This document shows, piece by piece, positions 270 to 63,213 of a stretch of 64,000 nucleotides of DNA (within the stretch, counting starts at the first letter, position 1; the number at the start of each line of letters is the position of its first letter). The notes under the pieces are model-generated. The model saw only the letters and a list, made by a program, of their open reading frames with translations. It did no database searches and had not been told where the DNA came from. Where the stretch lies: assembly GCA_016788905.1 (NCBI GenBank), contig JAEURZ010000001.1, positions 118,944 through 182,943 on the forward strand, written 5' to 3'. The position numbers and the translations under genes are program-made. Source of the stretch: Elusimicrobiota bacterium. GTDB lineage: Bacteria; Elusimicrobiota; Elusimicrobia; FEN-1173.

Positions 270-278
270 TATTCCGTC

Positions 279-662: not shown

Positions 663-784
663 GAGACCCCTCCGAAATGAATCAAACCTTCCTGTTCAGA
701 GCATAGGGTCTTTTGAGAACGAATTCAAGCCTGAAGAACCGGTTTTCAATCCTTCGAACAGGAGAGGGAAACACCCCATGGCGT

Positions 785-2382: not shown

Positions 2383-2582
2383 GGTTCACCATCTTTCCTC
2401 TCTGCCCGTGCGTGAGCCGCCACAGGGTGCCCGTGTAAAAGAATTCCCACGTAGGGAGAGTTTTTCTTTTCCCGTGCGGGGAGTCCTTGCGTATAAAATT
2501 TCCGATGGGGTTAACAAATTTCTTGGCCATGGGTTTGCCCTCCTGACTGGTTAGACGCCCGAAACTGAAAAAAGTTCCCCCC

Positions 2583-2638
2583 TTGACAAAAAATGGAAGT
2601 CGACATACAATGTGAGTGATTAATCACTAGCAAGGAGA
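2583..2638 (+). promoter_or_regulatory. sigma-70 promoter (TTGACA-N17-TACAAT), a perfect 14-bp palindromic operator (AGTGATTAATCACT, 2615-2628) and an RBS for the TetR gene
   Basis: TTGACA at 2583-2588, 17-nt spacer, TACAAT at 2606-2611. The palindrome sits at the +1 region. AGGAG at 2633-2637 lies 6 nt before the ATG at 2643. Confidence 0.6.
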
Positions 2639-2642
2639 AAAA

Positions 2643-3227
2643 ATGCACTTCATTGTGGAACAGTCTAAAGTTAAAACCATTTTGCCCAAGGTCATGCGGG
2701 CCGCTGTTCGCTTGTTTGTCGAAAAGGGAATTGATGGAACAACGACGAAAGACATCGCGTCCAAAAGCGGTGTTTCGGAAGGGGCTCTTTACCGACACTT
2801 TAAAAGTAAAGAGGACCTGGCCTACCATATTTTCGCCACACATGTGAATGAGTTCTCACATGAGTTGACAGCGCTTATTAACCGAGAATTGCCCGGCCGA
2901 GCCCAATTGGGCGCCTTTGTAGCGACCGCTTTTAAGACCTATGAAGAAGAAAGGGATTTGTTCACCTACCTTATCCTCTCAGAGCACAGGGAATTGGATA
3001 AATTCCCCTCCACGTTTAAACATCCAGGGCACGTGGTGGTGGACCTCATTAAAGATGGCCAAACCGCCAAAGCCTTTCGACCCATGGACCCCTTTATCGG
3101 GGGGTCTTTGATCCTGGGGGGAATCATTCGGATTTGTGTGGTTCGTTACCGTCAAGCAATTGGCCATGATTTACGCAAAGAGACAGAACCCGTCACGGAG
3201 TCCCTATGGCGCGCCCTAAAAAACTAA
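2643..3227 (+). CDS. TetR/AcrR family transcriptional regulator
   Basis: N-terminal TetR HTH signature (GTTTKDIASKSGVSEGALYRHFKSKEDL). 194 aa. Probably autoregulated through the palindrome overlapping its promoter. Confidence 0.85.
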   Translation: MHFIVEQSKVKTILPKVMRAAVRLFVEKGIDGTTTKDIASKSGVSEGALYRHFKSKEDLAYHIFATHVNEFSHELTALINRELPGRAQLGAFVATAFKTYEEERDLFTYLILSEHRELDKFPSTFKHPGHVVVDLIKDGQTAKAFRPMDPFIGGSLILGGIIRICVVRYRQAIGHDLRKETEPVTESLWRALKN

Positions 3228-3934
3228 AGAAGAACTTGGAATCCGTGATTCTAATCCACGGGATTCTCAACCGGCCCTTTATTATGACATTCATAAAAAA
3301 AAGCCTTGAAAACGAAGGATTTAGGGTCTACAACTGGGGATATAAAAGCCGGGAGAAAAATATTGAAGAATACGCTGCGAAATTGAAAACATTCATACAA
3401 AACCAAGACTTTCCTGGGCCAATTCATTTTGTCGGATTTTCCCTTGGAGCCATTATTGCTCGGACCTACTTATCAAAACATCTCCCCTCTCCGGGGAGTC
3501 GGTTGGTCCAGATTGCACCACCAAATCACGGATCCCCATGGATCGATACGTTGTTTCGATTCAGACTATTCCGGTGGATTTATGGCGACAAAGCTATTCT
3601 TCAACTCAGAACGGATAGCTCCTTCTTGAAATCCCTTGGTGTGCCACGATGTCCATTCGGGATCATCGCCGGCAGCAAAAAATGGGGAAAAAGCGATGAC
3701 CCTATTTCACCCAAAGACAATGACGGGTCCGTGCCCCTCACCAGCACCCAGCTGCCAGGAGCAACGGATTTCATTCGAATTAAATCCCAGCATACGTTGC
3801 TTCTCTTCCGAAAATCAACGGTTAAGAACATCATTTTATTTTTAAAAACCGGGTTCTTCCTGCACCCCAACGTAAACCCATCGGGGAACACCCCGATCCC
3901 CGAAAAAACTGAAACAAAAGGAGAACAGCCATGA
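3206..3934 (+). CDS. alpha/beta hydrolase fold protein (lipase/esterase-like)
   Basis: GxSxG nucleophile elbow (VGFSLGA) and a hydrolase-like HG..N oxyanion region. Overlaps the TetR stop by 22 nt and the next gene by ATGA. Confidence 0.7.
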   Translation: MARPKKLKKNLESVILIHGILNRPFIMTFIKKSLENEGFRVYNWGYKSREKNIEEYAAKLKTFIQNQDFPGPIHFVGFSLGAIIARTYLSKHLPSPGSRLVQIAPPNHGSPWIDTLFRFRLFRWIYGDKAILQLRTDSSFLKSLGVPRCPFGIIAGSKKWGKSDDPISPKDNDGSVPLTSTQLPGATDFIRIKSQHTLLLFRKSTVKNIILFLKTGFFLHPNVNPSGNTPIPEKTETKGEQP

Positions 3935-4404
3935 TTGGATTGGGCGGACTTTGGCTTTTAATTGTGGGAGTCATCTTACTGACACCCCTCTTGGCTCTGT
4001 TGGCCTTCATTCGTGTGGGGACAGTTCAAAAAAGGCTGAACATTCTTGAACGGGAATTCGAAAAACTTCGGCACCGAGACCCCCTCCCACCGCCACCGAA
4101 ACCCTTGGAAATTCCAATACCTCCCCCCCGAGAACCACTCCCTCCGAGCGATCCCTTCACCGGAATATCCCTTAACATTCCACCGGAAAAACCACGGGAC
4201 CCGGAAAAAAAGGTCGCCATCGAACCAACAACACCCCCCCTGCCCGCCCGACCGTGGTTCAAGCCCCCCCCTCTTCCGGAGAAATACCGACCCTGGATTG
4301 GGACCGATTTACGGGAGTTAAACTTTTTAGCTGGATTGGTGGGTTTGCTCTTTTTATGGGCGCTGCCTTTTTCGTCAAATACAGTATCGACCACAGTTGG
4401 GTGA
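3931..4404 (+). CDS. N-terminal fragment (TM helix, coiled segment, Pro-rich linker) of a DUF2339-like membrane protein. The reading frame is lost in the 4176-4300 interval.
   Basis: Hydrophobic N-terminal helix then a PPPKP-rich linker. The frame runs into the next ORF, which carries the DUF2339-type motif in another frame. Confidence 0.5.
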   Translation: MIGLGGLWLLIVGVILLTPLLALLAFIRVGTVQKRLNILEREFEKLRHRDPLPPPPKPLEIPIPPPREPLPPSDPFTGISLNIPPEKPRDPEKKVAIEPTTPPLPARPWFKPPPLPEKYRPWIGTDLRELNFLAGLVGLLFLWALPFSSNTVSTTVG

Positions 4405-6926
4405 GCCCGCTCATGCGGGTCATGGCCGGCTTCGTCGCTGGCACGGGGGCCCTCCTGGCGGGGATCCATACGCACAAACGCGGGTATTCTGTGACGGGGC
4501 AAACCTTGGGCGCTGCGGGATGCGCCATTCTTTACGCCAACACGTTTGCCGCCCACGCTCTTTATGGCCTTCTCAACGCTGAATCCGCCTTCGCTTTTAT
4601 GACGCTCGTGACAGCGGTGGCCTTCCTTTTGGCCATCCGGATGGACTCCCCGTATGTGGCGATCTTGGGGCTCCTCGGAGGATTCTTGACCCCGCCCCTG
4701 TTTTCAACTGGGGTGGACCAAGCCCTGGGGCTGTTCAGTTACGTGACCCTCCTCGACGTGGGGTTGGTGTTGGTGGCTCTCCGAAAACGATGGATGTATT
4801 TGATCTCCGCCGCAGCCCTGGGGACCGTCCTCATGCAAACAGGGTGGGCCCAGCAGTTTTTTGAAGCTTCCAAAATGACCACCGCGGCCAGTATTGTTCT
4901 TTGGTTCGCCGGCCTCTTTGCCGTGGCACGCCGGATGTCGGAAAAAACCGATCCCAACGATTCCCATTCTCTTCATTCAGCGGGGCTTCTGTCTCTGGTC
5001 GCGGTCGTGGGGATGGGATTCTTCGCGCTCAAAAATACGGCGGTGGCCGTCCAGCCCACCGTTCCATTTTCCGTCTTGATCCTGAGCAACATCCTTTTGG
5101 CGGGATTGGCCCTTCGCCACGAAAAGTTCCAAGGCTACCATGTCCTGGCGGGAGGGATCTCGTTTTTCAGTCTGATGATGTGGACGAACCAGTTCTTGTC
5201 CCCCGCGCTCCTGCCGCACGCTCTCCTGGTCATCCTTCTTCTCGGCGGGTGGCACGGCGCGTTCGCCGTGATCCTCCATCGTCGAGGTGGATCGTCCACC
5301 GCTGTGGCCCTGGGCCAGATCTACCCGGTGATCCTCCTGATTCCCGTCCTCCTCACGTTGACCCGGCAAACAGCTTCTCCCGTGTTTCTTTGGCCTGTGG
5401 CGTTTCTCTTGAACGGCGTCACCATTTTGGCCGCCCTGACCACAGGATTTTTCTGGGCCCTGCTGGGCGCCCTAGGCCTCAGCCTCCTCACCGCGTCTCT
5501 CTGGATGGGCCGTCTTTCCTCGGGGGACTTACCAAGCCTCCTTCTGGTGATCGGCGGAATAGCGGCTCTGTTTTTTGGGGCCGGACTGTGGTTCCTGAAA
5601 AGGAACGAAAGAACAAACCAAGAAGGATCTCCAAAGGAACAAAAAGCTTGGGCGCTCCCACCAGAATTGGCGGACACCCTTCCCGCTTTGGGATGCCTTC
5701 TGCCTTTCTTGCTCCTGGGGCAAGCGGCTGTCCATCTCAAACTGACCAATCCAGCTCCTGTTTTCGGGGTGGGCGCTCTCTTAATCCTTTTGCTCCTCAG
5801 CCTTGCGATTCGGCGCGGCGCACGGACAGGGATCCTGGTCCCCATGGGTCTGATCAGTATGGCCCTGCTTCAATTCGTCTGGCATAGAGAACTCTTTTCT
5901 CTCAGCGATCCGTGGGTCGTGTTGCCTTGGTACACAGGAACGTTGGCTGTCTTTTTAGCTTTACCTTTTCTTTCCAAATCGTTTGGGGCCCTGTTCGAAT
6001 CCTGGATGACCTCCGCCGCCGCAGGCCCCATCCTTTTCTTCTTTCTATACAAAACCTATTCCACCCTTTTCGGAACGAACACCCTAGGGGCCTTGCCAGC
6101 CGGATTGGCCGTCCTTTACTCCCTCTCTTTGTGGGAAATCATTCGCCATCCCTCGGAGAGCCTTCCTCGAAAACAAACCCTTCTGGCCGCGTTCGGGGGC
6201 GTCACCCTCTTCTTTATCAGCCTTATTTTTCCCCTCCAATTCGATCGGGAGTGGATTACTCTGGGATGGGCCCTGGAAGGGATGGCCCTGGTGTGGCTTT
6301 TCGGTCGGGTCCCTCACCCCGGACTGAAAGTGTGGGGAGGGACATTGCTCACCATCGCCTTTGTGCGGTTGGCCGCCAACCCCACCGTTTTCGCCTACCA
6401 TCCTCGTACGGGAACACCTTTCTTCAACTGGTATCTGTATGCGTATGGCGTTACAACGGTGTGCCTGTTGCTCGCGGCCCGCTTTTGGCAAACCTCGGCT
6501 GCGGAGAAGGGGGCGTCTTCGGACGAAACAAGGCCCGAAATTTCCTTCCGGTCAGGATTGAACGCCATGGGGATTGTCCTTCTATTCTTGCTCATGAACA
6601 TTCAAATCGCCGATTGGTTTAGCACCGGGACCACCCTCACCTTTAACCTGCGGGGCTCCCTCACGCAAGACATGAGCTATACCTTGGGATGGGGTCTCTT
6701 CGGCCTTGCCCTTTTAGTGGTCGGCCTTTGGAAAGACTCCCTCGGCGCGCGTCGCGCGAGTTTTGCCTTGCTCGCTGTCACGATTGGGAAACTCTTTCTC
6801 CACGATGTGTGGCGACTGACCCTTCTGTATCGCGCGGCAGCTTTTGTTGGGCTGGCGGTGGTTCTCATTCTTTCCTCTTTCCTTTATCAACGGTTCCTTC
6901 GGGGCCGGGAGGAGAAGAAACCATGA
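4254..6926 (+). CDS. DUF2339-like large polytopic membrane protein, main body (frameshifted relative to the N-terminal fragment)
   Basis: About 890 aa with more than 20 hydrophobic helices. An N-proximal ...WIGGFALFMGAAFFVKYSIDHSW... motif is typical of the DUF2339 family. The GTG at 4254 is only the ORF-finder start, and frame 0 is open back to 4176. Confidence 0.75.
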   Translation: MVQAPPSSGEIPTLDWDRFTGVKLFSWIGGFALFMGAAFFVKYSIDHSWVSPLMRVMAGFVAGTGALLAGIHTHKRGYSVTGQTLGAAGCAILYANTFAAHALYGLLNAESAFAFMTLVTAVAFLLAIRMDSPYVAILGLLGGFLTPPLFSTGVDQALGLFSYVTLLDVGLVLVALRKRWMYLISAAALGTVLMQTGWAQQFFEASKMTTAASIVLWFAGLFAVARRMSEKTDPNDSHSLHSAGLLSLVAVVGMGFFALKNTAVAVQPTVPFSVLILSNILLAGLALRHEKFQGYHVLAGGISFFSLMMWTNQFLSPALLPHALLVILLLGGWHGAFAVILHRRGGSSTAVALGQIYPVILLIPVLLTLTRQTASPVFLWPVAFLLNGVTILAALTTGFFWALLGALGLSLLTASLWMGRLSSGDLPSLLLVIGGIAALFFGAGLWFLKRNERTNQEGSPKEQKAWALPPELADTLPALGCLLPFLLLGQAAVHLKLTNPAPVFGVGALLILLLLSLAIRRGARTGILVPMGLISMALLQFVWHRELFSLSDPWVVLPWYTGTLAVFLALPFLSKSFGALFESWMTSAAAGPILFFFLYKTYSTLFGTNTLGALPAGLAVLYSLSLWEIIRHPSESLPRKQTLLAAFGGVTLFFISLIFPLQFDREWITLGWALEGMALVWLFGRVPHPGLKVWGGTLLTIAFVRLAANPTVFAYHPRTGTPFFNWYLYAYGVTTVCLLLAARFWQTSAAEKGASSDETRPEISFRSGLNAMGIVLLFLLMNIQIADWFSTGTTLTFNLRGSLTQDMSYTLGWGLFGLALLVVGLWKDSLGARRASFALLAVTIGKLFLHDVWRLTLLYRAAAFVGLAVVLILSSFLYQRFLRGREEKKP

Positions 6927-49394: not shown

Positions 49395-52300
49395 TTAATT
49401 CGTTGGGGGTGGTGTAACGGGAACCCCGCTAGGGGTCACCGCTGGGCCGTTGGATACAGGCCGCGACGCCATGTGCTGATAAAGCGCCCAACGGGATTCC
49501 GCGTCTTCCTGAGAACGACCCCAGAGATCCCGCGCGTGTTCGGGCGCTGTTTTCGTGAGCATTTTAAAGCGATTCTCCCGCATATAAAACTCTTCCATTT
49601 TCATGGCGGCGGGCCGGGAATCGATCACCAAGGGGTTTTGGCCCTCAGTGATTCGACGCGGGTCGTGCCGATAGAGAAGCCATTGGCCGCTCCCGACAGC
49701 TGCTTTTTGGCTGTCCAGCGCCTTGGTCATATTGATCCCGTGAGCAATACAATGACTGTAGGCAATGATCAACGAAGGCCCATCAAACGACTCCGCTTCA
49801 AGGAAGGCCCGGAGCGTCTGTTCGTCCCGCGCCCCCATGGCCACTTCCGCCACATAAATGTTGCGGTAACTCATGGCCATCAAACCTAAATCTTTTTTCG
49901 CCGAAGATTTCCCCCCTGTGGCAAACTTGGCCACCGCAGACCGCGGGGTCGCCTTGGACACCTGTCCTCCCGTGTTGGAATAGACACCTGTGTCCAACAC
50001 GAGGATGTTGACATCCATCCCGCTGGCAAACACATGATCCAACCCCCCAAACCCGATGTCGTAAGCCCAGCCATCCCCCCCCACGATCCACACACTTCGC
50101 CGAACCAGGACATCCGCCAAGTCCATCAATCGGGCCACTTCATTCCCCGGCACATTTTTTAATTTCTCTTTGAGAATTTTGACCCGCTCCCTCTGTTCAT
50201 AAATCCCGGCTTCATCCCGTTGTTTTCCTTCCAACAAACCCATCACCAACTCATCCCCCAAGTGGGAGGAGAGGCGTTTCACCAAATCCCGGGCCATTTC
50301 CATTTGCTGATTCACCGAAAGGCGGAACCCCAGGCCGAATTCGGCGTTATCTTCAAAAAGCGAATTGGACCAGGCGGGACCGCGCCCCTCCTTGTTGGTT
50401 GCCCAGGGGGTGGTGGGCAAATTACCCCCATAAATGGAGGAACATCCCGTGGCGTTGGCGATCAACGCGCGGTCGCCCCATATCTGGGAAAGAAGTTTGA
50501 GGTAAGGCGTTTCCCCGCAACCGGAACAAGCTCCCGAAAATTCAAACAGTGGGGTTTGTATTTGCACTTGATTGATCCGTCCCATCTTCAGTTTCCGTCG
50601 ATCGTATTCCGGAAGGGTGAGGAAAAAATCCCAGTTCTCTTTCTCCGTCGCGCGGAGGGGAGGTTGGGGTTGCATGTTAATGGCTTTCAGTTTGGCTTCC
50701 GACTTGTTGCGCGCGGGACAAATTTCAACACAAAGGGTACAGCCCGTACAGTCCTCAGGAGCGACCTGGAGAACAAATTTCTGACCTTTCCAATCGCGCT
50801 CAATGGCGTCACGGCTTTTGAACGTCGAAGGAGCGCTGGCGATCAACTCGGGTTCGACCACTTTCGAACGGATCACACTGTGAGGACAGATCATCACGCA
50901 CTTGTTGCATTGAATACAGGTGTTCGTATCCCACACAGGGATTTCCAAAGCCAAATTACGTTTTTCATAGGCCGCTGTCCCGAGAGGGAATGTCCCATCG
51001 ATCGACATGGCACTGACCGGCAAAGAATTCCCTTCGTTTCGGATCATGGTGCCGATAATATCCCGAACATAAGCTGGCGCGCCCTCCGCCACGGGAGGAG
51101 GCAATTCTTTCACGCTCGTCACTTGGGAGGGAATTTTCACTTCAAACATATGTTCCAACGCCATGTCCACGGACCGTAAATTCATTTCAACGATATCATC
51201 GCCCTTCTTGCCGTAGGCTTTTTCAATGGAATCCTTAATCTCAGCTATGGCCCTCTCCCGAGGAAGAACATCGGAAATAGCAAAAAAACAAGACTGCATA
51301 ACCGTGTTGATCAAACCGCGCAACCCAGCCTCTTTGGCCACGGCGTAGGCGTCGATTACAAAAAAACGAAGTTTCTTGGAAATGAATTTTTCCTGAAAAA
51401 TCCGAGGGAGTTCGTCCCAAATCTTATCCGGCCCAAAAGCGGTGTTGAGCAATACCGTTCCGCCTGTTTTCATTTGGTCCAAGAGGTCAAACCGTTCCAG
51501 AAACACCGGCTGGTGGATGCCCAAAAAATCCGCTTCAGAAATAAGATACGGCGCGTGAATCGGCTCCGGACCGAAACGCAAGTGAGAAATTGTAATGGAC
51601 CCCGCCTTCTTCGAATCGTAAACAAAGTAGCCCTGGGCATACCCCTCGGTGTTTTCCCCGATAATTTTAATGGAGTTCTTGTTGGCGCTCACGGTCCCAT
51701 CCGAACCCAGCCCATAGAACAGCGCACGCACGCCTTTGGGCGGTTCCGCTGAAAAATGCGGGTCCCACGGAAGACTGGTGTGCCCCACATCGTCATGAAT
51801 TCCAATGGTGAAATGGCTTTTGGGTTTTGCGGCGGAGAGGTTATCGAAAACAGCTTTGGCCATCCCGGGGGTAAAATCTTTGGACGAGAGTCCGTAACGT
51901 CCTCCCACAATGACCGGGGCCCCAATGAAAGGAGAAGTCCCTGCCCCCAACGATTCAAACACGGTGCTGACCACATCCGTAAAAAGCGGTTCCCCAGCGG
52001 ACCCGGGTTCCTTCGTTCGGTCCAACACGGCCATGCGTTTCACTGTTTTGGGCAGGGCCTTTAAGAACGCCGCCCCATCCAACGGCCGATACAGACGAAC
52101 TTTCAGAACCCCCACTTTTTCACCTGAAGCGTTCAATACCTTAGCCGTTTCTTGGGCAGTCTCCGCCCCAGAACCCATTAGGACGATGACACGCTCGGCG
52201 TCCGGTGCCCCCACATAGTCAAACAAGCGATAGTGTCGGCCCGTCAGCTTTGCAAACCGATCCATGATCGACTGCGTGATTCCCGGACAGGCATCGTAGA

Positions 52301-53006
52301 AGGGATTGACGGTCTCTCGCCCTTGAAAATAAACATCCGGGTTCTGGGCGGATCCCCGCATCACGGGTTTTTCTGGCGTGAGCCCCCGGGCGCGATGGGC
52401 GTGAATATCGGCGTCATCAATCAGGGCCCGAAGAGTCTCATCCTCCAGATACGTGACTTTCTGGACTTCGTGCGATGTGCGAAATCCATCAAAAAAATGA
52501 AGGAACGGAATGCGCGATTTAAGTGTCGCGGCTTGAGAAATGGCGGCGAAGTCCATGGCCTCTTGAACAGACGAGGAACACAAGAGGGCCCACCCGGTCT
52601 GGCGAGTGGCCATAACGTCTTGGTGGTCACCAAAAATAGAAAGCGCTTGAGCCGCAAGGGACCGGGCGGCCACATGAAAAACCGCTGGGGTCAGTTCCCC
52701 GGCGATTTTGTACATGTTCGGAACCATCAGGAGTAGACCCTGGCTTGCCGTGAAGGTGGTGGACAGAGATCCCGTTTGCAGGGCCCCGTGAACCGCACCC
52801 GCAACCCCCGCTTCACTCTGCATTTGGTAGACGTAAGGAACGTCTCCCCAAATATTTTTCTTCATCTCATACATCCACGCGTCGGACCATTCCGCCATCG
52901 TGGAGGAAGGGGTGATGGGATAGATCGCAATAACTTCGTTGGTGCGGAACGCCACAGACGCAACGGCTTCGCCGCCATCAATTGTTTTAAATCGCGCTTG
53001 GGACAT
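49395..53006 (-). CDS. nifJ: pyruvate:ferredoxin (flavodoxin) oxidoreductase, single-chain PFOR
   Basis: 1203 aa. Two 4Fe-4S ferredoxin motifs (CIQCNKCVMICP, CTGCTLCVEICP). TPP-binding GGDGWAYDIG. Conserved PFOR domains I to VI in order. Confidence 0.9.
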   Translation of the reverse strand: MSQARFKTIDGGEAVASVAFRTNEVIAIYPITPSSTMAEWSDAWMYEMKKNIWGDVPYVYQMQSEAGVAGAVHGALQTGSLSTTFTASQGLLLMVPNMYKIAGELTPAVFHVAARSLAAQALSIFGDHQDVMATRQTGWALLCSSSVQEAMDFAAISQAATLKSRIPFLHFFDGFRTSHEVQKVTYLEDETLRALIDDADIHAHRARGLTPEKPVMRGSAQNPDVYFQGRETVNPFYDACPGITQSIMDRFAKLTGRHYRLFDYVGAPDAERVIVLMGSGAETAQETAKVLNASGEKVGVLKVRLYRPLDGAAFLKALPKTVKRMAVLDRTKEPGSAGEPLFTDVVSTVFESLGAGTSPFIGAPVIVGGRYGLSSKDFTPGMAKAVFDNLSAAKPKSHFTIGIHDDVGHTSLPWDPHFSAEPPKGVRALFYGLGSDGTVSANKNSIKIIGENTEGYAQGYFVYDSKKAGSITISHLRFGPEPIHAPYLISEADFLGIHQPVFLERFDLLDQMKTGGTVLLNTAFGPDKIWDELPRIFQEKFISKKLRFFVIDAYAVAKEAGLRGLINTVMQSCFFAISDVLPRERAIAEIKDSIEKAYGKKGDDIVEMNLRSVDMALEHMFEVKIPSQVTSVKELPPPVAEGAPAYVRDIIGTMIRNEGNSLPVSAMSIDGTFPLGTAAYEKRNLALEIPVWDTNTCIQCNKCVMICPHSVIRSKVVEPELIASAPSTFKSRDAIERDWKGQKFVLQVAPEDCTGCTLCVEICPARNKSEAKLKAINMQPQPPLRATEKENWDFFLTLPEYDRRKLKMGRINQVQIQTPLFEFSGACSGCGETPYLKLLSQIWGDRALIANATGCSSIYGGNLPTTPWATNKEGRGPAWSNSLFEDNAEFGLGFRLSVNQQMEMARDLVKRLSSHLGDELVMGLLEGKQRDEAGIYEQRERVKILKEKLKNVPGNEVARLMDLADVLVRRSVWIVGGDGWAYDIGFGGLDHVFASGMDVNILVLDTGVYSNTGGQVSKATPRSAVAKFATGGKSSAKKDLGLMAMSYRNIYVAEVAMGARDEQTLRAFLEAESFDGPSLIIAYSHCIAHGINMTKALDSQKAAVGSGQWLLYRHDPRRITEGQNPLVIDSRPAAMKMEEFYMRENRFKMLTKTAPEHARDLWGRSQEDAESRWALYQHMASRPVSNGPAVTPSGVPVTPPPTN

Positions 53007-54082: not shown

Positions 54083-54667
54083 TTGTTAAAAAATGCGATT
54101 TACCTGATCAGCGAAACTCGCCCGGGAAATCTGGTTAATTCCCGGGCTGAAGTGTGCTTCGTTGGACGTTCAAATGTGGGCAAAAGCACCCTGTTAAACG
54201 CGCTCTGCGGAAAGGGGATCGCACGCGTTTCATCCACACCGGGACGGACCCGGATGATCAACGTTTTTTCTGTTGGTGAGGACCGATGGCTGGTGGACTT
54301 ACCGGGCTATGGGTATGCCGAAGTTCCTAAAGGGGAACGGAGAAATTGGGGGGCCATGGTGGAAGGGTACCTTGTCGAACGACCGAACCTGCGCATGGTG
54401 TTTACACTCATTGACGCGAAAGTCGGCCCTACCCCCCTGGACGTCCAAATGCATGAGTGGCTCGTTTCTAAGGGACTACCGTGGCGCGTCGTGGCGACAA
54501 AGATCGACCAAGTCAAAAAATCCATCGCTGGAAACCAACGGCGTCTTGTGGCAAAAACATTTGGCCTTCTACCAGAAGGCATCGCCTGGGTCAGCGCGGC
54601 CAAAGGACTAGGGATTAAAGAACTCAAGGCCGAAGTGACCGGCCTCCTCCTTAAACCTTCGGTTTAG
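54083..54667 (+). CDS. engB: ribosome-biogenesis GTPase EngB (YihA/YsxC)
   Basis: G1 GRSNVGKSTLLNAL, G3 DLPGYG and G4 TKID. Confidence 0.9.
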   Translation: MLKNAIYLISETRPGNLVNSRAEVCFVGRSNVGKSTLLNALCGKGIARVSSTPGRTRMINVFSVGEDRWLVDLPGYGYAEVPKGERRNWGAMVEGYLVERPNLRMVFTLIDAKVGPTPLDVQMHEWLVSKGLPWRVVATKIDQVKKSIAGNQRRLVAKTFGLLPEGIAWVSAAKGLGIKELKAEVTGLLLKPSV

Positions 54668-56018
54668 GAAGTTCTTCCTTGGGTGGGACCGGGGTTTGAA
54701 TGGACCCTAAATAGCCGGGAAGGTCCACCCCCGCCATGGCCGCAACCTCGTGCAACGGGGGAAGCGTTCGGACCAACCCGCTCATGAAGTTTGCAGTGGA
54801 CGATCCCTTCTCCCCCCCCGAATCCCAAACGGTAATTTTGTCGATCTTAATGTTCTTAATCACTTCGGTCTGCAATCGGACAATATCTTCCAATTTTTCC
54901 ACCAAAAGCAACGTGGCCGCGTCTTTCGGACTGTTTTGAGCGCTTCCCACCAAAGCCTTATACCCATCCGCCTTCGACATCAAAACCTTCTGAATACCGG
55001 TGGCCTCGGCGGTCTTCACCGAAACGATGGCGTCGGCTTCTCCCCGAGCGGTGCGCCGGTTTTTCTCGGCAGCGGCTTCCGCATCAATTTCGACCTTACG
55101 TTTTTCAATTTCTCGAGGAACCACCTCTTCCGCTTCCAAACGACGGGTTTCGGCCAGCGCTTTGGCTTTTTGAATTTCAGCCATTGAATTTTGTTTTGCC
55201 ACCTCCCCGCGTCGGCTCGCGTCGGCTTCTTTTTCAGCCAGATCCGCGTTCACTGTAGCGATATTGGCTTTGGCGGTATTTTCCCCCTCCACAGCCTTCG
55301 CGTTAAAAGACGCCACCTGAATCCGTCGTTCCCGCTGGGCGTCGGCTTCACCAATGGCGCCTTTCTTTTCTTGTTCAGCCACATCAATTTTGGCTTGATT
55401 GACTGCGGTGGAAGCGGCCTTTTTCCCAATGCTTTCAATGTAACCCGATTCGTCCGTAATATCCGTAATGTTAACGTTGATCAAGGTCAACCCGATTTTG
55501 CCCAGCTCCATGTCAATGTTTTTTCGAACCGCTTCCATAAAACGTTCCCGGTCTTGGTTGATTTGTTCAATGGTTAAAGACGCTACGGTCAAACGGAGTT
55601 GTCCAAAAATAATTTCCTGCGCCATGGTTTCAATTTCTTGACGCTCCATATTCAATAGGCGGACAGCGGCGTTGGTCATGGATTCCGGGGTCGTGTCAAT
55701 GGCGACGGTGAAAGTACTGGGCACGTTCACCCGGATGTTCTGCATCGAAAGAGCGTTCTTCAAAGGAATATTGATGGTCATCGGGGTTAAGGTCAGGTAG
55801 GTGTAATCCTGAATAAGCGGCCAGACCAAGGCCCCGCCCCCATGAATACAACGCACCGAACGTCCCACACCCACTTTTCCGTAAACCGCCAAGATCATAT
55901 TGGAGGGGCAACGACGATAACGGCTCGCCAAAAAGAGCATGGTGATAAAGAGGAAGGAGGCCAAGAGGGCTCCCCCGACAACAGCAAAATTTATTTCAAG
56001 TGTTTGAAGAAGATACAT
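54651..56018 (-). CDS. flotillin-like SPFH/band-7 protein (YqiK-like)
   Basis: N-terminal TM, SPFH domain, and a long Ala/Glu-rich coiled-coil C-terminus. Confidence 0.8.
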   Translation of the reverse strand: MYLLQTLEINFAVVGGALLASFLFITMLFLASRYRRCPSNMILAVYGKVGVGRSVRCIHGGGALVWPLIQDYTYLTLTPMTINIPLKNALSMQNIRVNVPSTFTVAIDTTPESMTNAAVRLLNMERQEIETMAQEIIFGQLRLTVASLTIEQINQDRERFMEAVRKNIDMELGKIGLTLINVNITDITDESGYIESIGKKAASTAVNQAKIDVAEQEKKGAIGEADAQRERRIQVASFNAKAVEGENTAKANIATVNADLAEKEADASRRGEVAKQNSMAEIQKAKALAETRRLEAEEVVPREIEKRKVEIDAEAAAEKNRRTARGEADAIVSVKTAEATGIQKVLMSKADGYKALVGSAQNSPKDAATLLLVEKLEDIVRLQTEVIKNIKIDKITVWDSGGEKGSSTANFMSGLVRTLPPLHEVAAMAGVDLPGYLGSIQTPVPPKEELPKPKV

Positions 56019-56027: not shown

Positions 56028-56648
56028 CTACGGCAATTTTTTAACGGACACGGTCGATCCATCCACCACCCGAACCACGGTCACATTCACGAAAGAATCC
56101 AGATCCACGCGATCTTCAGAAACCGCGGACACAAAGCGTGTGCTGTTGTTGAGAACCAACCGCACCTGTCCACGCCCTTCGGACGGGATCCGCGTATAAA
56201 CAGAGCCGGTCAGTCCAATCGTTTTCTGAACAGAGAACACATCCCCCGAACTGTTGAGGCGCCCCATTAGTTTAAAGAGGGATGCCGTGATAAACATGGC
56301 CACCACACCCGCGGCCAAGGAAATAAAAAAAGACGCTGTGGTGCCGAGACCGAATTGCTTTTCACACGACAGTCCCGCCCATCCAAAAGTCATAAAGAAC
56401 CCCGTGAGCGATTGCAGGGACACAAGTTTGAACGCCATGTCTGTAGCGTCCAAGGTTTGAGAATGGGTCGCCCCTTCCGACCCATGACTCACCTCTCCCA
56501 CTCCACCGCCATCCCCTACGTGATCCAAACCATCGGACTCTCCCCCAAAACCTCCAACCACCATGGCGGCCATGCGAAAGAGGAAAAAGAATGTGCCCGC
56601 CAAAGCAAAAATCCAATAAATCAATTCCGCTCCACGCAATGATCCCAT
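56028..56648 (-). CDS. NfeD-like membrane protein (YqiJ-like) with a C-terminal OB-fold
   Basis: Three to four TM helices, then a beta-rich domain of about 70 aa. Directly upstream of the flotillin gene, which is the canonical pair. Confidence 0.7.
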   Translation of the reverse strand: MGSLRGAELIYWIFALAGTFFFLFRMAAMVVGGFGGESDGLDHVGDGGGVGEVSHGSEGATHSQTLDATDMAFKLVSLQSLTGFFMTFGWAGLSCEKQFGLGTTASFFISLAAGVVAMFITASLFKLMGRLNSSGDVFSVQKTIGLTGSVYTRIPSEGRGQVRLVLNNSTRFVSAVSEDRVDLDSFVNVTVVRVVDGSTVSVKKLP

Positions 56649-56832: not shown

Positions 56833-59800
56833 ATGACTCAATTCATCCCATGGACCCTAGGCCGGACCACCTTAGCGGGGGCGATTCTGTTCACACAAGT
56901 TTTCTTTGCCCACCAAGTGGAAGCTCATTTTTGGGCCCAACGAGCCGATGCGGCTCGCCGCCTACGCGGGGAATCCTCGGCTCCATCCGAACAAATGGGA
57001 TGGCTCACGGAAATGACAACGTCCCTCTCAGGGATAGGAACAGTCACGATGGGAAGGACAGGATCCGGATCGGTCCTTTCCAAAAACTCCTTTCCACCCC
57101 CCCTCCGGGACGAAGTGGCGGACCTCGTGACCGCCCTCTTGCCTCATGCCACACTTCGGTCCTATAGAGACGCGGGCCCGGGGACTCCTTTCGTCATCCA
57201 CCTTCAGGACGTCCACGGGCACTTGGATGCCCAACGGAATATTACAAACCTTCTATCGGAAATTGTGACCCGTCGCCCCGGAACACCGATTGCTCTTGAA
57301 GGAGGGGCGGGCCCCATCGCCCTTCCTTCCTTGAACACAGTTTCGGTCCCTGCCATCCGACGGACGGCGGCGTTCTTTTTCAATACGGGGATCATCAGCG
57401 GAGCGGAAGTCGCTGCCCTGACCGCTCCGGTGGGAACTCCCCTCCATGGGGCAGAGAATCCAGAGCTCTACCTGGCCAACGTAGAGGCGGTACAGAAAGC
57501 GGCCCTCCTCCACCAAAAGATGACAGAACGGCTCTCAGCCTGGAGAACCCAAGTGGAAACTAAAGCGGATCAAACGCTGACCCCAGAACTTCGAGCCTTT
57601 AACGACAAAACCCGCCGGTGGGCTTCCGGAACGGAAGGGCTCAGCGACCGTGCCCACTTCCTCTGGACCCGGGCGAACTCCAGAGAACACCCTGAACTCA
57701 AGAAATTCATGGAAGCCGCGCGAACTGAAGAAAAAATAAATTTGATCGCGGTCCAGCAGGATCGACGGGCTCTCTTAACCAACTTGGAAGAACGAATGGC
57801 GAGCTCAGCGGTCTCGGATCTCGCCCACGCGGCGTTGGCCTTCCGAAGTGGGCACCTCCGCCCCGGTGACTTCTACCGAACCCTTCGAAACGCCATACAC
57901 CGGAGTGGTTTGACACTGAACCCTTATCCTCATTTTGAGGCCTATGTGCGTTACGTCATTCTGGCCGATAGTATTCAGCCCGAAATACTTCAAGAGGAAA
58001 TGGAAAGACTGGAATCCTCGCTCTGGAACCGATTGGCCAAAACACCGGAAGAGCACCGCCAGGTCGCTCTGATTCGAGACCTCCGTCTGATGGAGGGGTT
58101 GGCCACTCTGACCTTGACTCCCCAAGACTGGACCCATTACCTCGAACGCTCCGCGGAGCTACACCAACTTCCCCATCGAATGAACGAACCGTCCATGAAC
58201 CATCCCACCTGGATACAGGAACTCACTCCTTTTGAACAGTTTTACACATGTGCCGAAGCACGAAATTCAGCCCTGGCCAAGAACGTGAGCGCCCTCTTTA
58301 CGCGAACCTCTCAAAACCGACCCTTGGTGGTCCTGGTGGCGGGCGGGTTTCACTCCGCCGGATTGGCTCCCATTTTCGCAGCTCAGGGTATTTCCGTCCT
58401 CACCCTATCGCCCAAATTAAGCGAAGCCGGTCACGGAACACCTTTTGATCTTTTCACCCGCGAGCGAACTCCCTTGGAACGTCTTTTCGAATCCCCTCGT
58501 ATCACCCTGTCCCAAACTTTGGCTCTCCAACCCATTGGAGATTCATTACAGACCCGAACCCAATTGATCAAGGAATTGGGCCCACGCCTGGGTCCCCTTT
58601 TGGAAAAAGAGGCGGGGGATAGGGGCTCGAGAGTGCACATTTCCGAAGGGGACCCCGTCCTGTTGACCACCGATTCTGACGGACTGACCACCGATTCAAT
58701 CCGTCAAATCGTTGCTGGAGGGAGTCTTTTAGCCGCCAAGGTGCCCACCTCCCTTCAATCCGGAACCACGGTGGACACCCGGGCAAACGACCCCTCTGTG
58801 TATGTCTATACCAAAAGGATCAATGCCGGAAGAGAGTTTTTACGGAGGGCAACTCTTCTCTTCGTTCAAATGAAGTCCCATATCATTCGAGCATTAGGCG
58901 TTTCTCTGTTATCCGTGTTGCTCCTCCCCTTAACACCAAGTCTTTCGGCCCAAGCGGCCACTTTTTCACAGATGGGGGATCGTATCGAAGTCATGGTTCA
59001 CAAGGGAGAACATTTGTGGGGAGTGGCCCAAAAAATATTAGACGCTCAAGGGGTCCGCGTTACCCTTCAGGCCACGGCCAAAGCAGTTCAGGACCTAGCC
59101 CGTGCCAATGCCGAACAAATACCAAATCCCGATCTCATTTACCCGGGAGTTTCGTATACCGTTCCTTCCCAACTTTTGAATGCGAACACCAGACGAACAC
59201 TCACCGAAAGGGACAGCCCTGGCGCGACAGAAAAAAAGCCTCGAGCGGAGGATCCACCCGAGGAAATCGGACGAATTGTCCCTCAAGGGATGACACCAGA
59301 TCCCGGCCCCCCGGATTCCCAGCCCGAACCACCACGATCCCTCTCACCCGAAAGAGTTCCTGAAATTCCCCCGCAATCAAGTCCGTCAGCCCCCACGGCA
59401 CCCGGATTCGACATCAGTTATTTCTTACTGATCGCAGGGGCCTACGTTTTGCGAGCAACGCGAATCACGCATTCTGCCTTGGGATACAATGCCATGAAAG
59501 ATCGGGCCCATCGATTTCTTTCCTTAACAACCCGGCAGAAAAATGCCTCGCGTCGATTTCTTTCACGGATTCTCCCTCACCACCTGAATCTTCAGCTCGT
59601 GGGGACACTCGGGATCATCACCCTTCTCATTTATTCTTTCCCCACCCTGATCGTGGCCAACGGAGATGCCCTCGGGATTGACCTGGCCAAGCAATGGCCG
59701 GTCGAACTTGTCCTGACCACGGGGGTGGGCATGGCCATCTATTTTATTTGGTGGCGACCGAAAGAGGTGGATTTGAGTCTGGTGGAAAAAACCGATCCCC

Positions 59801-62800
59801 GCCTCATGGAATGGATCTCTGGAATAGAGGAAATGAAAACCGTCGATGACCTGGATCGTTTGGAATCGGATTTTCTCCTTCCCTTATTGAACAATCTCCA
59901 CGCACTCATCCTCAACCATCAAATCACAAGTGCCTCGGTCACCGATCGCGGAACAGTTGAAAAACAAATTGATATCTACCGCTCGATCGCCCGCTTGTCA
60001 CGGGACACGGTCTTCGCTCTGGACCAACGGTTAGACACTCTCCCCCCGTCCACCGGTGGCTCGCGAGAACGTATCACAGATATCCGGGAGAAAATCTTCT
60101 TGTACCAACTTTACGCCCTCAAGGTTTCCCACATTCTCGTTAACGCCAGCGTCGCCCATTGGGCCTTCTCCCATTTTGATAAAAAAACGTCCTGGTTTGA
60201 GCGTTGGGGCGTGGGAGGGCTCCTCCGCACCGTTCGCGGGGTTCGGAGAATGATTGACATTTCCGTCCACGAGTTTAATCGTCAAACCCTTCAAGACAAC
60301 ACCATCGACGGGGATTCTATTTGGGCCAACGCCTCCGGCCTTTCGGTGGCCAGTCTCGGAAACGTATTGGTTCCGGGACTCTATTCAGAAGAGAAAAAAG
60401 CCAGCCTTTCTTCTGTTTTCTCCGTTTTGGTGGAAAAGGCAAAGACAAAAATTCTCCCGGATATCACCGGGAAGGACTTGCACAGGAAAGGGATATCAAC
60501 GCTCCTCGGTCTGTTGGTATGGACCGCCGCCATTTCAATGACATTCACCATTGGACATGCCACGTTGGCCTTTTTAACAGGATTGGGTTTGAACATGGCC
60601 CTTTTTCGTCTCCAAGCAGCGGGAACCCGGCGTGATGCATTTTATCGAAAGGGGCTTGCCGAATGGCACCAATGGAACAAAGATCATCCCCATTCCAACG
60701 GGCGAATACGAAAGGATGAATCGGGCAAGGCTGAGGATCCGTTTCATTTAAACCGCGACTCCATTCGCTCCAATTTCCAGAAAGCGGAGGAGGCCCTGCT
60801 CAGGGAAATTCTTCCCGATGGGGTCCCTTCCGCAGACCTCATCCTCCTGGTCGCCAAAAATGAGTCCGAGCGGGCTTACTACGAAGAGAGGCAGAAGGAC
60901 ACTCAAATTTTTCGACCTGACGTCCCGGTGATCATCCTCTCCATCCCTGAGGGGCGGGGTTCCTTGATGGCCTACGCCACGGCCGCACTCTACCCCTATT
61001 CCGATGACTTTACGCAATTAGTAAATCGTTACCCCCACCTCAAAGACAAGGCCCCGTGGGAACTTCGCATGGGTACAATGGTTTCAAAATCTCCCGAAAC
61101 GGAGGACATGAGACAACTTCTCCGCAACGTCCCCGGACTTTCAAAACATCTTTCCGCCGAAACAGTGGCCAACAGAACGGTCTTTGACCTGGGCATTATG
61201 AACATTTACCGGGCCACCCAAGCCCGTGCCTCCCGCGGGTTGGGAGGGATGGCGCTGCGCTGGTCGGACCGAGCCTATATTGGACCTGTTCGAACCGCCG
61301 AAGGGGATGGAATTACTCTCGACACATTTTGGGCCAACAAGAGAGAAATGGCCCGTTATCATTTCGGTGCTGTCGTTGGAACCCCGGGCAAACCCATCAA
61401 ATTGATCCGCTTGAATGGGATAGAAAACACCTTGCGCGTTTTGAGCTATAAACACCCGGGACGAGTTTATGATTCCACTAACCTGGAATTGGACCAAAAC
61501 CAGGGTTTTTCGGGCGAAGGATTTTACGCTTTGGATGAAGCGGGCAGTTTAGCCCAAAAAAAATTCCTCGCGAGTGTATTGAAACGCTATGGAAAGCTAA
61601 AAACGAAACCCTCGTTAAGCCTTGTGACCAATTACCTGATCCCAGCTCAAATCGCCCAACGCCACCGGGGAACACCAGGAACAATCCCCCAAAAAATCGT
61701 CACTTTTTTTGCCCAAAATGGTTTTTTGAGTAGAGCCTCCTCCACGGATTTAGAACGGTTTAATTTAAAAAACGCGAGGCGGTCCACGGCCTTTGCTAAC
61801 GGGCATGGAACGATTCGCTTGAACGCCAATCCTGTTGAAGGTTATTTTTATGGGGGGGCTTCCTTTCCGGTCAATCCCCAAGAAAATGGGTTTTACCCAC
61901 GAGCATCCGTTCCCGGCCCCGGAGCCCCAGTTCAAGCGGTCAATATATTTCATGCCATGGGAGTGGCCTGGGCCTTCCTGGGTTCCGCCCTGCATCTCTT
62001 GGGCACAGGACGAGGGATCTTCACCGCCTTTTCGGTTCCCATTCTAGCGGTGTGGTTGTTCCTGTCACCGGTCGGATTGATGGCCTCACGGGTGTCCCAG
62101 TCCGGGCGAGCTGGAGCCTCATCTCTTTTGAGGAGTCGCCGAGATCCGAAATTTATAACGAACGAAGCTTGGTCTCGGCCAGAAACGGATTTGAATGAGA
62201 TCACGGCGGCCATGGAAGCGCTGAAAAAGAACCCCGATCCACGGGCAGATCGAAGCCGCCGCGCCTTAGCCCGGCTCGGGTTGACTCTCATCGCCACAGC
62301 CCCTCTTCAAAACAATTTATTGGATGGTCTTGATGTCAACAAAACGCGCCGAATCATGCAACGAACAGCCCCAGGCGCCTGGGCGGAAGATTTCAAAGAA
62401 GAGGGCCAGCCCGGAGCGGCAGGAATGATCCGCCGCATATCCCTGCGGTCCCTGGCCCATCAAATCGCTGAAATTCAGCGGGGGACTTCCCCGGGGAACC
62501 AGAGTCATGCCGCCCAAAGGCAAAGCGCCTTTTTGGCTGGGTTGGCTGACCTCGATCGGGAATCATTGGAAGATTTAAGTGCTTTCTTGAAATTGTTATC
62601 CATCGAAAAACAAGAGGAACCCCTAACGAACGCCGAGTGGGATGCTGCCGTCAGCCGTGGGGAAACTCAACGCAAAACTCTTAGGGAATGGATCCAACCC
62701 ACACCAACGACCGAAACACCAGAATCGACTTTCACTGCACTGCGTGTCACGGAATTAATCCCTGGCGCTTCGGGGACCACCGCGCAAAGGAACACTCTTC

Positions 62801-63213
62801 TCACGGAACTCCGACAACGAGTTTCCAGTCACCGGACTGGTCAGGATGTCCTGGTGATCAACGGAAGTGCCACCCAAGGACGCAACGAGAAAGTCCTCCG
62901 TGAATCACTTGGGGAAAAAGTGAAGGACCCGGCTTTGCTCGACTACCTGACCACCGTTCAAATCGTGGTCATTCCCGAAAATCGGTTTGCTCCTGAACAT
63001 GTGCGGACCCAACTCCCCAAAGAGTTTTCCCGCCTCTCCATGGATCTCTTGACCGTTCACCCCGCCGCCGTGCTTGTTGATCCCCTCCAGACCGGGGGCT
63101 CGGATCGGGTGCTCCTCTTGGAACTCTGGGGGGGGATACTCCACCACGTTGATTTAATCAACGTCGCTCGCCAAGCCATGGAGACAGCTCGAGTCCTCTC
63201 CAGCGCCGCATAG
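56833..63213 (+). CDS. 2126-aa multi-domain membrane protein of unknown function. It has a signal peptide, an N-terminal domain with His motifs (Tiki/TraB/GumN-like?), a LysM-like module, and three TM clusters separating large soluble domains.
   Basis: Uninterrupted 6.4-kb ORF with SD-like AAGAAACCCGAGAGA upstream. Signal peptide (AILFTQVFFAHQVEA). HLQDVHGH at 57195-57230 and VVLVAGGFHSAGL at 58336-58362. LysM-like region around 58984-59170 (GEHLWGVAQKIL...DLIYPGVSYTVP). Pro-rich linker. TM clusters around 59400-59760, 60490-60610 and 61930-62100. Confidence 0.8.
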   Translation: MTQFIPWTLGRTTLAGAILFTQVFFAHQVEAHFWAQRADAARRLRGESSAPSEQMGWLTEMTTSLSGIGTVTMGRTGSGSVLSKNSFPPPLRDEVADLVTALLPHATLRSYRDAGPGTPFVIHLQDVHGHLDAQRNITNLLSEIVTRRPGTPIALEGGAGPIALPSLNTVSVPAIRRTAAFFFNTGIISGAEVAALTAPVGTPLHGAENPELYLANVEAVQKAALLHQKMTERLSAWRTQVETKADQTLTPELRAFNDKTRRWASGTEGLSDRAHFLWTRANSREHPELKKFMEAARTEEKINLIAVQQDRRALLTNLEERMASSAVSDLAHAALAFRSGHLRPGDFYRTLRNAIHRSGLTLNPYPHFEAYVRYVILADSIQPEILQEEMERLESSLWNRLAKTPEEHRQVALIRDLRLMEGLATLTLTPQDWTHYLERSAELHQLPHRMNEPSMNHPTWIQELTPFEQFYTCAEARNSALAKNVSALFTRTSQNRPLVVLVAGGFHSAGLAPIFAAQGISVLTLSPKLSEAGHGTPFDLFTRERTPLERLFESPRITLSQTLALQPIGDSLQTRTQLIKELGPRLGPLLEKEAGDRGSRVHISEGDPVLLTTDSDGLTTDSIRQIVAGGSLLAAKVPTSLQSGTTVDTRANDPSVYVYTKRINAGREFLRRATLLFVQMKSHIIRALGVSLLSVLLLPLTPSLSAQAATFSQMGDRIEVMVHKGEHLWGVAQKILDAQGVRVTLQATAKAVQDLARANAEQIPNPDLIYPGVSYTVPSQLLNANTRRTLTERDSPGATEKKPRAEDPPEEIGRIVPQGMTPDPGPPDSQPEPPRSLSPERVPEIPPQSSPSAPTAPGFDISYFLLIAGAYVLRATRITHSALGYNAMKDRAHRFLSLTTRQKNASRRFLSRILPHHLNLQLVGTLGIITLLIYSFPTLIVANGDALGIDLAKQWPVELVLTTGVGMAIYFIWWRPKEVDLSLVEKTDPRLMEWISGIEEMKTVDDLDRLESDFLLPLLNNLHALILNHQITSASVTDRGTVEKQIDIYRSIARLSRDTVFALDQRLDTLPPSTGGSRERITDIREKIFLYQLYALKVSHILVNASVAHWAFSHFDKKTSWFERWGVGGLLRTVRGVRRMIDISVHEFNRQTLQDNTIDGDSIWANASGLSVASLGNVLVPGLYSEEKKASLSSVFSVLVEKAKTKILPDITGKDLHRKGISTLLGLLVWTAAISMTFTIGHATLAFLTGLGLNMALFRLQAAGTRRDAFYRKGLAEWHQWNKDHPHSNGRIRKDESGKAEDPFHLNRDSIRSNFQKAEEALLREILPDGVPSADLILLVAKNESERAYYEERQKDTQIFRPDVPVIILSIPEGRGSLMAYATAALYPYSDDFTQLVNRYPHLKDKAPWELRMGTMVSKSPETEDMRQLLRNVPGLSKHLSAETVANRTVFDLGIMNIYRATQARASRGLGGMALRWSDRAYIGPVRTAEGDGITLDTFWANKREMARYHFGAVVGTPGKPIKLIRLNGIENTLRVLSYKHPGRVYDSTNLELDQNQGFSGEGFYALDEAGSLAQKKFLASVLKRYGKLKTKPSLSLVTNYLIPAQIAQRHRGTPGTIPQKIVTFFAQNGFLSRASSTDLERFNLKNARRSTAFANGHGTIRLNANPVEGYFYGGASFPVNPQENGFYPRASVPGPGAPVQAVNIFHAMGVAWAFLGSALHLLGTGRGIFTAFSVPILAVWLFLSPVGLMASRVSQSGRAGASSLLRSRRDPKFITNEAWSRPETDLNEITAAMEALKKNPDPRADRSRRALARLGLTLIATAPLQNNLLDGLDVNKTRRIMQRTAPGAWAEDFKEEGQPGAAGMIRRISLRSLAHQIAEIQRGTSPGNQSHAAQRQSAFLAGLADLDRESLEDLSAFLKLLSIEKQEEPLTNAEWDAAVSRGETQRKTLREWIQPTPTTETPESTFTALRVTELIPGASGTTAQRNTLLTELRQRVSSHRTGQDVLVINGSATQGRNEKVLRESLGEKVKDPALLDYLTTVQIVVIPENRFAPEHVRTQLPKEFSRLSMDLLTVHPAAVLVDPLQTGGSDRVLLLELWGGILHHVDLINVARQAMETARVLSSAA

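Follow-up and report, generated by a model that had tools for sequence, protein, structure and literature searches.

The 64,000-nucleotide (nt) stretch of Elusimicrobiota bacterium DNA analyzed here (contig JAEURZ010000001.1 of assembly GCA_016788905.1, positions 118,944 to 182,943 of the forward strand; hereafter the window) contains at positions 56833..63213 (+) a complete open reading frame (ORF) of 2126 amino acids (aa), running from ATG to stop and deposited as MBL8022788.1. According to the data obtained it is a genuine, conserved Elusimicrobiota gene, whose polytopic product is predicted to reside in the inner membrane. Judging from a structural model, its N-terminal "head" is a member of the Tiki/TraB/ChaN/Ere superfamily with catalytic-type residues intact, and the same head opens proteins from thousands of sequence clusters. 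The best explanation is a peptidoglycan-tethered inner-membrane scaffold that would present a Tiki-type hydrolase and several alpha/beta domains to the cytoplasm, and we assign to this reading a probability of roughly 0.55.

The NCBI record of the protein, derived from a metagenome-assembled genome (MAG), bears the title 'hypothetical protein JNK54_00700 [Elusimicrobia bacterium]'. The single 6.4-kb ORF reported in a preliminary description of this DNA was confirmed as one ATG-to-stop frame, and a frame of this length cannot have arisen by chance in DNA of ~54% GC. The 2126-aa protein was recovered on at least four independent assemblies, including contigs of a JGI metagenome, an ENA/NCBI assembly and a Logan assembly, with the ORF DNA 1 nt apart from the window copy. 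GC content (0.543), GC at third codon positions (GC3, 0.572) and codon usage are all inside the range of neighbouring housekeeping genes. Full-length relatives were found by database search, three with 50–53% and three with 37–41% identity, and a 2582-aa relative is collinear with the query but bears insertions. Since the relatives align end to end without frame breaks, the fusion artefact which the preliminary description had named as a possible refutation is ruled out. Its statement that the protein fits no characterised family held good: a Pfam scan of the whole protein gave no family at E<=1, an NCBIfam scan a single weak SafA/LysM-like match (aa 752-779, E 0.0026), and the anti-phage defence models of PADLOC 0 families at E<=0.1. 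The epithet "orphan" had to be dropped, as full-length orthologues exist and more than 7,000 clusters have the same head.

The head domain occupies positions 57130..58527 (+, aa ~100-565) and is predicted to be cytoplasmic. The AlphaFold2 (AF2) model of aa 1-640 has a mean predicted local distance difference test (pLDDT) value of 73.7, exceeding 80 in the core, and a predicted template modelling score of 0.66. It consists of an alpha/beta core, with a central parallel beta-sheet between helices as in the superfamily, and an all-helical insertion of ~250 aa within the Tiki-like fold (57460..58197, +, aa ~210-455). In fold comparison the highest score was registered with ChaN (2g5g, 9.6), followed by an Ere-like 'succinoglycan biosynthesis' protein (2rad, 8.2), a TraB-family subunit (8bqs_DQ, 7.9), RRSP (5w6l, 7.8), HopBA1 (5t09, 7.7), a second Ere-like 'succinoglycan biosynthesis' protein (2qgm, 7.6) and EreC (6xcq, 6.7). 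Alignments delineated two halves of a putative active site: HLQD126VH128GHLDAQ ... LE156GG at 57199..57306 (+) and F470-Y-x5-R477-N ... LVAGGFH507SAGL at 58240..58365 (+). The most conserved positions of the domain fall in HLQDVHGH (aa 123-130, nt 57199-57222) and VVLVAGGFHSAGL (aa 499-511, nt 58327-58365). In A1, an alignment of 18 N-terminal regions, the residues D126, H128, A133, Q134, E156, G190, G206, F470, R477, L501, G504, G505, H507 and P527 are invariant, and the same set was obtained with an independent sample of 17 members. Mean column identity of divergent members is only 19–34%, yet D/H/E/R/H do not vary. Over the family the two head motifs are present in 155/163 and 161/163 proteins, GG[FYW]H being found in 161 of the 163.

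The paper on the RRSP structure (PMC6254334) describes the superfamily as a parallel beta-sheet core with a 2His/2Glu site, formed in RRSP by Glu-3900, His-3902, Glu-3930 and His-4030, together with Arg-4001. The distance of 28 aa from H128 to E156 equals that between His-3902 and Glu-3930, and the 30 aa from R477 to H507 compare with 29 between Arg-4001 and His-4030. Thus the catalytic-type constellation (E/D-x-H, Glu ~28 aa further, G-x-x-H and Arg) is recognizable in the sequence, with Asp instead of Glu as the first acidic residue. The paired His motifs had been tentatively likened to those of Tiki/TraB proteins. As the AF2 fold matches and D126/H128, E156, R477 and H507 are spaced as in RRSP, this assignment appears right at the superfamily level, and the proposed structure prediction, once run, indeed gave a Tiki-like head. 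With the Tiki/TraB/PrgY/GumN/ChaN/Ere/RRSP/HopBA1 superfamily (PF04187, PF01963, PF05139) it shares the residue order and, with RRSP in particular, a near-identical local spacing. It differs from known members in the Asp for the first Glu, in the fold split by the helical insertion, in the lack of a family-level profile match over threshold, and in that the head follows its own conserved anchor-helix motif and is always joined to kilo-residue bodies with multiple transmembrane (TM) segments.

The head profile of A1 was run with hmmsearch on 1.84 billion cluster representatives and retrieved 10,059 of them at E<=1e-3, of which 7,047 still passed E<=1e-30. The domain starts no more than ~60 residues from the N-terminus in each of the top 150 matches; these proteins have 576-7623 aa, with a median near 2.1 kilo-amino acids (kaa). 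A dozen further proteins of 1.7-3.7 kaa match the query in the first ~580 residues only. The multi-TM bodies behind the head are variable, in proteins of 0.6-7.6 kaa. Seventeen sampled bodies were mostly dark to Pfam, with scattered GT1/GT4, GT2, ABC1 kinase, TPR, M48, M50 and GH26 domains, while others bear Pkinase, S-adenosylmethionine (SAM) methyltransferases, IMPase+HAD+hexokinase, GDH+REC, AprA-like methyltransferases or Metallophos; the source names of some members read isocitrate lyase or histidine kinase/CAAX protease. Wherever the source organism is named, it is always an Elusimicrobiota MAG. Scanning of GTDB genomes with the single protein gave no match, the A2 patterns found two Elusimicrobiota loci only, and a third, profile-based homologue search added just two new proteins. 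Pfam and NCBIfam have no model for the family, and its head, N-terminal motif and Ala-COOH tail are covered by neither. The family is very large and lacks annotation, and within the superfamily the head forms a new branch, likewise very large, with an insertion and an anchor motif of its own. Three hallmarks characterize the family: the AHAxE(S/A)NFWxERR anchor helix, the ~470-aa head and a C-terminal helix ending in Ala-COOH. One member combining the head with AprA-like methyltransferases (P0019, contig L009 1-28625) lies in a cluster with a phosphoenolpyruvate mutase/isocitrate lyase, two CDP-alcohol phosphatidyltransferases, nucleotidyltransferases and aminotransferases, which looks like phosphonate or phospholipid head-group metabolism.

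Both termini are conserved. At the N-terminus a hydrophobic helix (aa 12-30) and the family motif AHQVEAHFWAQRADAARRLR (aa 26-45) together occupy 56866..56967 (+), and the family consensus, ...VyF.TNvlfAhAaEsNFWaERR.Aarr, along with the flank charges predicts an N-out/C-in anchor. Motif rows were anchored on W by a pattern that also constrains positions +3 and +4 and that matched 119 of 168 sequences; in these rows E stands at −4 in 112/119 and R at +3 in 116/119. The motif was found at N-termini only (92 matches there, 0 internal). Members typically begin with 1-5 Lys/Arg (K/R), ~15-20 hydrophobic residues and small residues such as A-x-E-A/S, and in the query 1 K/R precedes and 4 follow the helix within <=15 aa. 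The helix had previously been taken for a cleavable signal peptide. Probably it is a family-specific motif helix, or anchor, that is not cleaved: its polar motif is conserved, four K/R come after it, and the TM segments downstream obey the positive-inside rule only with a cytoplasmic head. At the other end a family tail domain of alpha/beta type (62710..63210, +, aa 1960-2126; AF2 pLDDT about 80) terminates with ...ARVLSSAA-COOH. A hidden Markov model (HMM) seeded with the last 167 aa of the query converged on iteration to 43 of 155 family tails, of which 42 end exactly at the C-terminus, and 42 have the final Ala. Of other members 65/119 end in Ala, in a helix of the form Φ-x-x-Φ-(A/L)-x-(Q/S/A/N)-A-COOH. 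Those without it look like contig-end fragments, so that all seemingly full-length members would finish in an Ala-COOH helix. The tail profile found no match among PDB sequences. Weak, position-consistent tail-head HMM matches brought up the idea of a degenerate half-Tiki domain, which was rejected at an hhalign probability of 0.3%. The termini might serve as a degron or a PDZ ligand, might carry a secretion-type signal at the C-terminus, or might mediate contact between head and tail.

TM helices were located by hydropathy, both in the single sequence and averaged over orthologues, and K/R in their flanks were counted for the positive-inside rule. Nine helices were registered (aa 12-30, 685-706, 863-883, 916-942, 958-981, 1220-1241, 1243-1262, 1701-1723 and 1727-1752). 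After the N-terminal anchor follows TM2 (58885..58950, +), which is signal-anchor-like, with a K/R-rich N flank and a ...LSAQA|AT c-region, and is the predicted exporter of the LysM-like module. TM3-TM5 come next (59419..59775, +; family-averaged hydropathy and flank charges), and then two hairpins, TM6-TM7 (60490..60618, +, aa 1220-1262) and TM8-TM9 (61933..62088, +, aa 1701-1752). The three TM clusters reported before are therefore present, but with 3+2+2 rather than 4+2+3 helices, the segment at aa 685-706 having been overlooked. One topology obeys the positive-inside rule at 8 of the 9 helices, TM8 being neutral with 1 K/R in each flank, and over all nine it places 29 flanking K/R inside against 5 outside. 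Its N-terminus is out, the head is in, the ~160 aa between TM2 and TM3 (aa 707-862, the LysM-like module and stalk) are out, and the remainder is in, interrupted by the two hairpins. The relatives are in line with this arrangement. In P0012, P0015 and P0019 no segment between the head and the following SAM-methyltransferase, GDH+REC or AprA-like methyltransferase reaches 1.2 in a 19-residue Kyte-Doolittle scan. P0013 has two TM segments ahead of IMPase/HAD, P0018 one ahead of its Metallophos domain, and the orthologue P0007 is devoid of the TM8/9 cluster and retains both flanking domains. Based on the 29 versus 5 K/R, the TM-free head-enzyme fusions and P0007, we infer a cytoplasmic location for the head and every large block, leaving only the LysM-like module and its stalk in the periplasm. 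The earlier proposal of large soluble domains on alternating faces of the membrane is at variance with the same data. Like RRSP and mitochondrial TRABD, the head would then be membrane-localised and cytoplasm-facing.

The LysM-like module (58984..59172, +, aa 718-780) is predicted to be periplasmic. The reference LysM is a beta-alpha-alpha-beta module of about 44 aa, and the pattern G-(D/E)-x-L-W-x-(I/V)-A ... N-x-I-x-N-P-(N/D)-x-I-x-P-G-x-x-(Y/L)-x-(I/V)-P of the known modules (PF01476; SafA, LytN, Kbp) is found here too, unlike them in single copy and with an insertion of ~15 extra residues between the two helices. When aa 708-785 were compared with Pfam LysM, 7 of 8 subfamily members matched at E<=10, the best at E 8.2e-5, and a profile of the segment retrieved from the PDB the LysM of SafA (7r1l, E 0.001), another LysM protein (6q40, E 0.0013), Kbp, CVNH-LysM and LytN, all in the range E 0.001-0.006. 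The module noticed previously is thus supported at a borderline score, and peptidoglycan binding is predicted. The Pro-rich linker, likewise noticed, is indeed present at aa 797-860 (59221..59412, +); it is poorly conserved and of variable length among orthologues, and may serve as a periplasmic stalk. Other subfamily members (P0084, P0032, P0008) also carry the LysM-like module, and P0033 has it in tandem duplicate (aa 713-874).

Behind TM5 the body continues with soluble block 1 (59782..60486, +, aa 984-1218), which is subfamily-specific, shared by only about 10 clusters, predicted cytoplasmic and without a Pfam match. Soluble block 2 (60619..61932, +, aa 1263-1700) has a Rossmann-like alpha/beta core at aa ~1311-1486 and is followed, after the second hairpin, by a helical C-terminal middle region (62089..62709, +, aa 1753-1959) modelled with low confidence. 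Among the sequences examined, per-block HMMs detected the succession of LysM-like module, TM cluster, block 1, block 2 and C-terminal region in only ~10 clusters. A sequence search with block 2 returned two fragments of the same subfamily and nothing else. Taken as a whole, the AF2 model of aa 1262-2126 is poor (pLDDT 53), with confidence confined to aa ~1311-1486 and aa ~1961-2111; Foldseek found nothing for it below E 0.02, and a profile search of PDB sequences with the same region gave no meaningful match.

In the proposed mechanism the LysM-like module on its Pro-rich stalk would pin the membrane scaffold to peptidoglycan. The body would comprise one TM helix, the module with its stalk, three further helices and, in the cytoplasm, block 1, block 2 and a third region made up of the C-terminal middle part and the tail, the three being parted by the two hairpins. 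At the cytoplasmic face of the membrane the scaffold may keep the Tiki-type hydrolase, a putative peptidase or esterase, next to the subfamily-specific alpha/beta domains. By analogy with Ere enzymes and RRSP, the His-Glu pair of the head would activate water for attack on a membrane-proximal protein or ester, or on the head's own polypeptide.

Several results weigh against this reading. PF04187, the ChaN model of the Tiki superfamily, matches 6 of the 18 A1 members in a per-member Pfam scan (best E 6.6e-7), and P0012 scores 26.5 bits. The query itself attains only 14.3 bits (E 0.04, aa 448-509 only) with a gathering threshold of 27.7 bits; by its sequence it is outside the ChaN family proper and alike at the superfamily level only. 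Profile searches of PDB sequences with the head, or with the head core freed of the insert, yielded no Tiki-family chain. With PF04187 below cutoff and these searches empty, the superfamily link is founded on predicted structure and motifs. ChaN demonstrates, moreover, that the same fold is able to serve as a non-catalytic ligand binder. The query reaches 20.2 bits with Pfam LysM, just under the cutoff of 20.9. Positive charge in the n-region of the N-terminal helix and small residues at −3/−1 could lead a standard predictor to call a signal peptide. The known bacterial members of the Tiki superfamily, ChaN, GumN and PrgY among them, are extracytoplasmic. Finally, most of the protein is functionally dark, because blocks 1 and 2 and the tail yielded no assignable fold.

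Two of these points, the resemblance of the N-terminus to a signal peptide and the extracytoplasmic location of the characterised bacterial relatives, speak for the arrangement assumed in the preliminary description, namely a cleaved Sec signal peptide, a periplasmic Tiki-like head and domains alternating across the membrane in an envelope-spanning machine or signalling scaffold. DeepTMHMM also calls a signal peptide plus TM for many long Omnitrophota proteins (bioRxiv 10.64898/2026.06.07.730766). However, in such an orientation the K/R-rich flanks of TM2-TM9 would fall outside (about 25 versus 5) and the LysM-like module would appear in the cytoplasm. Three to six K/R follow directly after the putative cleavage site, the helix with its c-region carries a conserved polar motif atypical of generic signal peptides, and in relatives no TM separates the head from the SAM-, NAD- and phosphoryl-dependent domains fused to it. 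We regard this arrangement as doubtful.

The invariable position of the head in front of mosaic bodies assembled from unrelated enzyme modules brings in another possibility: the product may be a polyprotein, in which the head is a cis-acting maturation peptidase cutting the long precursor into modules. The invariance of the catalytic-type residues, the endopeptidase nature of Tiki and RRSP, and an internal signal-peptide-like segment (AQA|A) before the LysM-like module are all consistent with it, and a like role was speculated for C39/S8 domains as cutters of the giant Omnitrophota proteins (bioRxiv 10.1101/2023.11.21.568195). On the other side, no cleavage motif was found to recur inside the proteins, the motif of the N-terminus is never internal, orthologue alignments contain no conserved linker sites, and the superfamily includes esterases and binding proteins as well as peptidases. 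A polyprotein is therefore unlikely. It is quite improbable that the head is a non-catalytic module for ligand binding or assembly, resembling ChaN (with haem, for instance) or PMT-C1/C2 and used in common by these proteins for docking or anchoring. Inactive members such as PMT are without the 2His/2Glu motif (PMC6254334), whereas here D/H/E/R/H persist across very divergent proteins.

Returning to the scaffold with a cytoplasmic hydrolase, one may ask what is common to its family as a whole. Anchor motif, Tiki-like head and Ala-ended helix might constitute a dedicated handling system for mosaic mega-proteins of Elusimicrobiota and possibly related phyla, an idea that we consider tentative and rather unlikely. 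It could take two forms, a peptidase built in for maturation or quality control and recognising the termini, or head-to-tail docking into membrane-associated arrays. If true, it would give the first shared and testable molecular handle on the "giant protein" phenomenon; if the head is a generic hydrolase with no special tie to the termini, what is left is a new branch on an already known superfamily.

Giant mosaic membrane proteins of Omnitrophota were described as 'multi-enzyme metabolic clusters' and Archaeovorins (bioRxiv 10.1101/2023.11.21.568195, 10.64898/2026.06.07.730766). The present family resembles them in its long single ORFs, numerous TM segments and mostly "dark" sequence, and in that relatives embed hexokinase, IMPase, HAD, methyltransferase, GT1/GT4, REC, kinase and isocitrate-lyase-type domains. 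It also shares the paradox of a predicted export that clashes with enzymes of cytoplasmic type (bioRxiv 10.64898/2026.06.07.730766). One member, P0009, even adjoins a gene of this size class: immediately 3' of it on contig L006 (20723-30380, +) a 17,629-aa product is encoded, which has no head domain at its start. Giants of this kind are delimited by >=10 kaa, many TM segments, tiled enzyme Pfam domains and frequent SecA-DEAD/C39, while the query has 2126 aa, nine TM helices and no Pfam enzyme domain. Unlike the Omnitrophota giants, the family is represented by 2.1 kaa here and 0.6-7.6 kaa among sampled members, its named members belong to Elusimicrobiota, and it is free of SecA-DEAD, C39, S8 and dockerin domains. 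The terms Tiki, TraB and ChaN are absent from both Omnitrophota preprints (apart from one 'chan' in a reference list), neither of which reports a head or tail common to the proteins, and among the papers searched none was found on such a head domain or tying Tiki/ChaN to Elusimicrobiota or to giant proteins. Uncultured bacteria are known for long, mostly "dark" multi-TM proteins that lack an explanation, and recent preprints list them without a unifying element. A definition of the head domain could annotate thousands of hypothetical proteins. The proposed topology, with head and enzymes inside and small ectodomains outside, bears directly on the export paradox, and point mutants of H128, E156, H507 and the terminal Ala offer tests of function.

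In the genomic environment of the gene, a 206-aa ORF (56028-56648, −) and then a Band_7/flotillin gene are located upstream in divergent orientation, so that the described position opposite a flotillin pair was confirmed. The 206-aa neighbour, a membrane protein, has no Pfam match at E<=0.1, and its proposed name NfeD derives from position alone. Downstream, an IS256-type transposase gene (PF00872) begins at 63768, 555 nt 3' of the big ORF. What had been taken for a transposase fragment is a gene cut by the window end, complete on contig L003 (7100-8338, 412 aa), and the hint at mobility drawn from it was not substantiated, as GC, GC3 and codon usage match the flanks in a comparison that the preliminary description had itself proposed. 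Two other assemblies of the same genome stop 513 and 585 bp past the big ORF; since both break off ~500-600 bp after it, the insertion sequence (IS) is probably multi-copy and interrupts assembly. Although the transposase and these breakpoints lie so close, it is hardly credible that the ORF is a mis-assembled fusion or IS cargo, given the same frame on at least four assemblies, collinear orthologues in other genomes with no IS nearby, a base composition within the range of neighbouring genes, and no second IS copy or flanking repeat seen upstream in a search that was not exhaustive.

Conserved neighbours were sought in six further contexts and none were found, other orthologues and family members being in unrelated surroundings; the flotillin pair is absent in L005 and L006. 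The neighbourhoods compared contain no conserved partner, operon or sign of mobility, and the suggested link to NfeD-flotillin was given up because they differ among orthologues. Upstream synteny is kept on L004, the contig of the closest orthologue, where PFOR, hemerythrin, EngB and flotillin (window 49395-53006 (−) to 54651-56018 (−)) correspond to positions 1-5568. Five called genes, one of them 58 aa long and overlapping the ORF start, separate the flotillin pair from the big ORF there, and this slight displacement suggests a local rearrangement.

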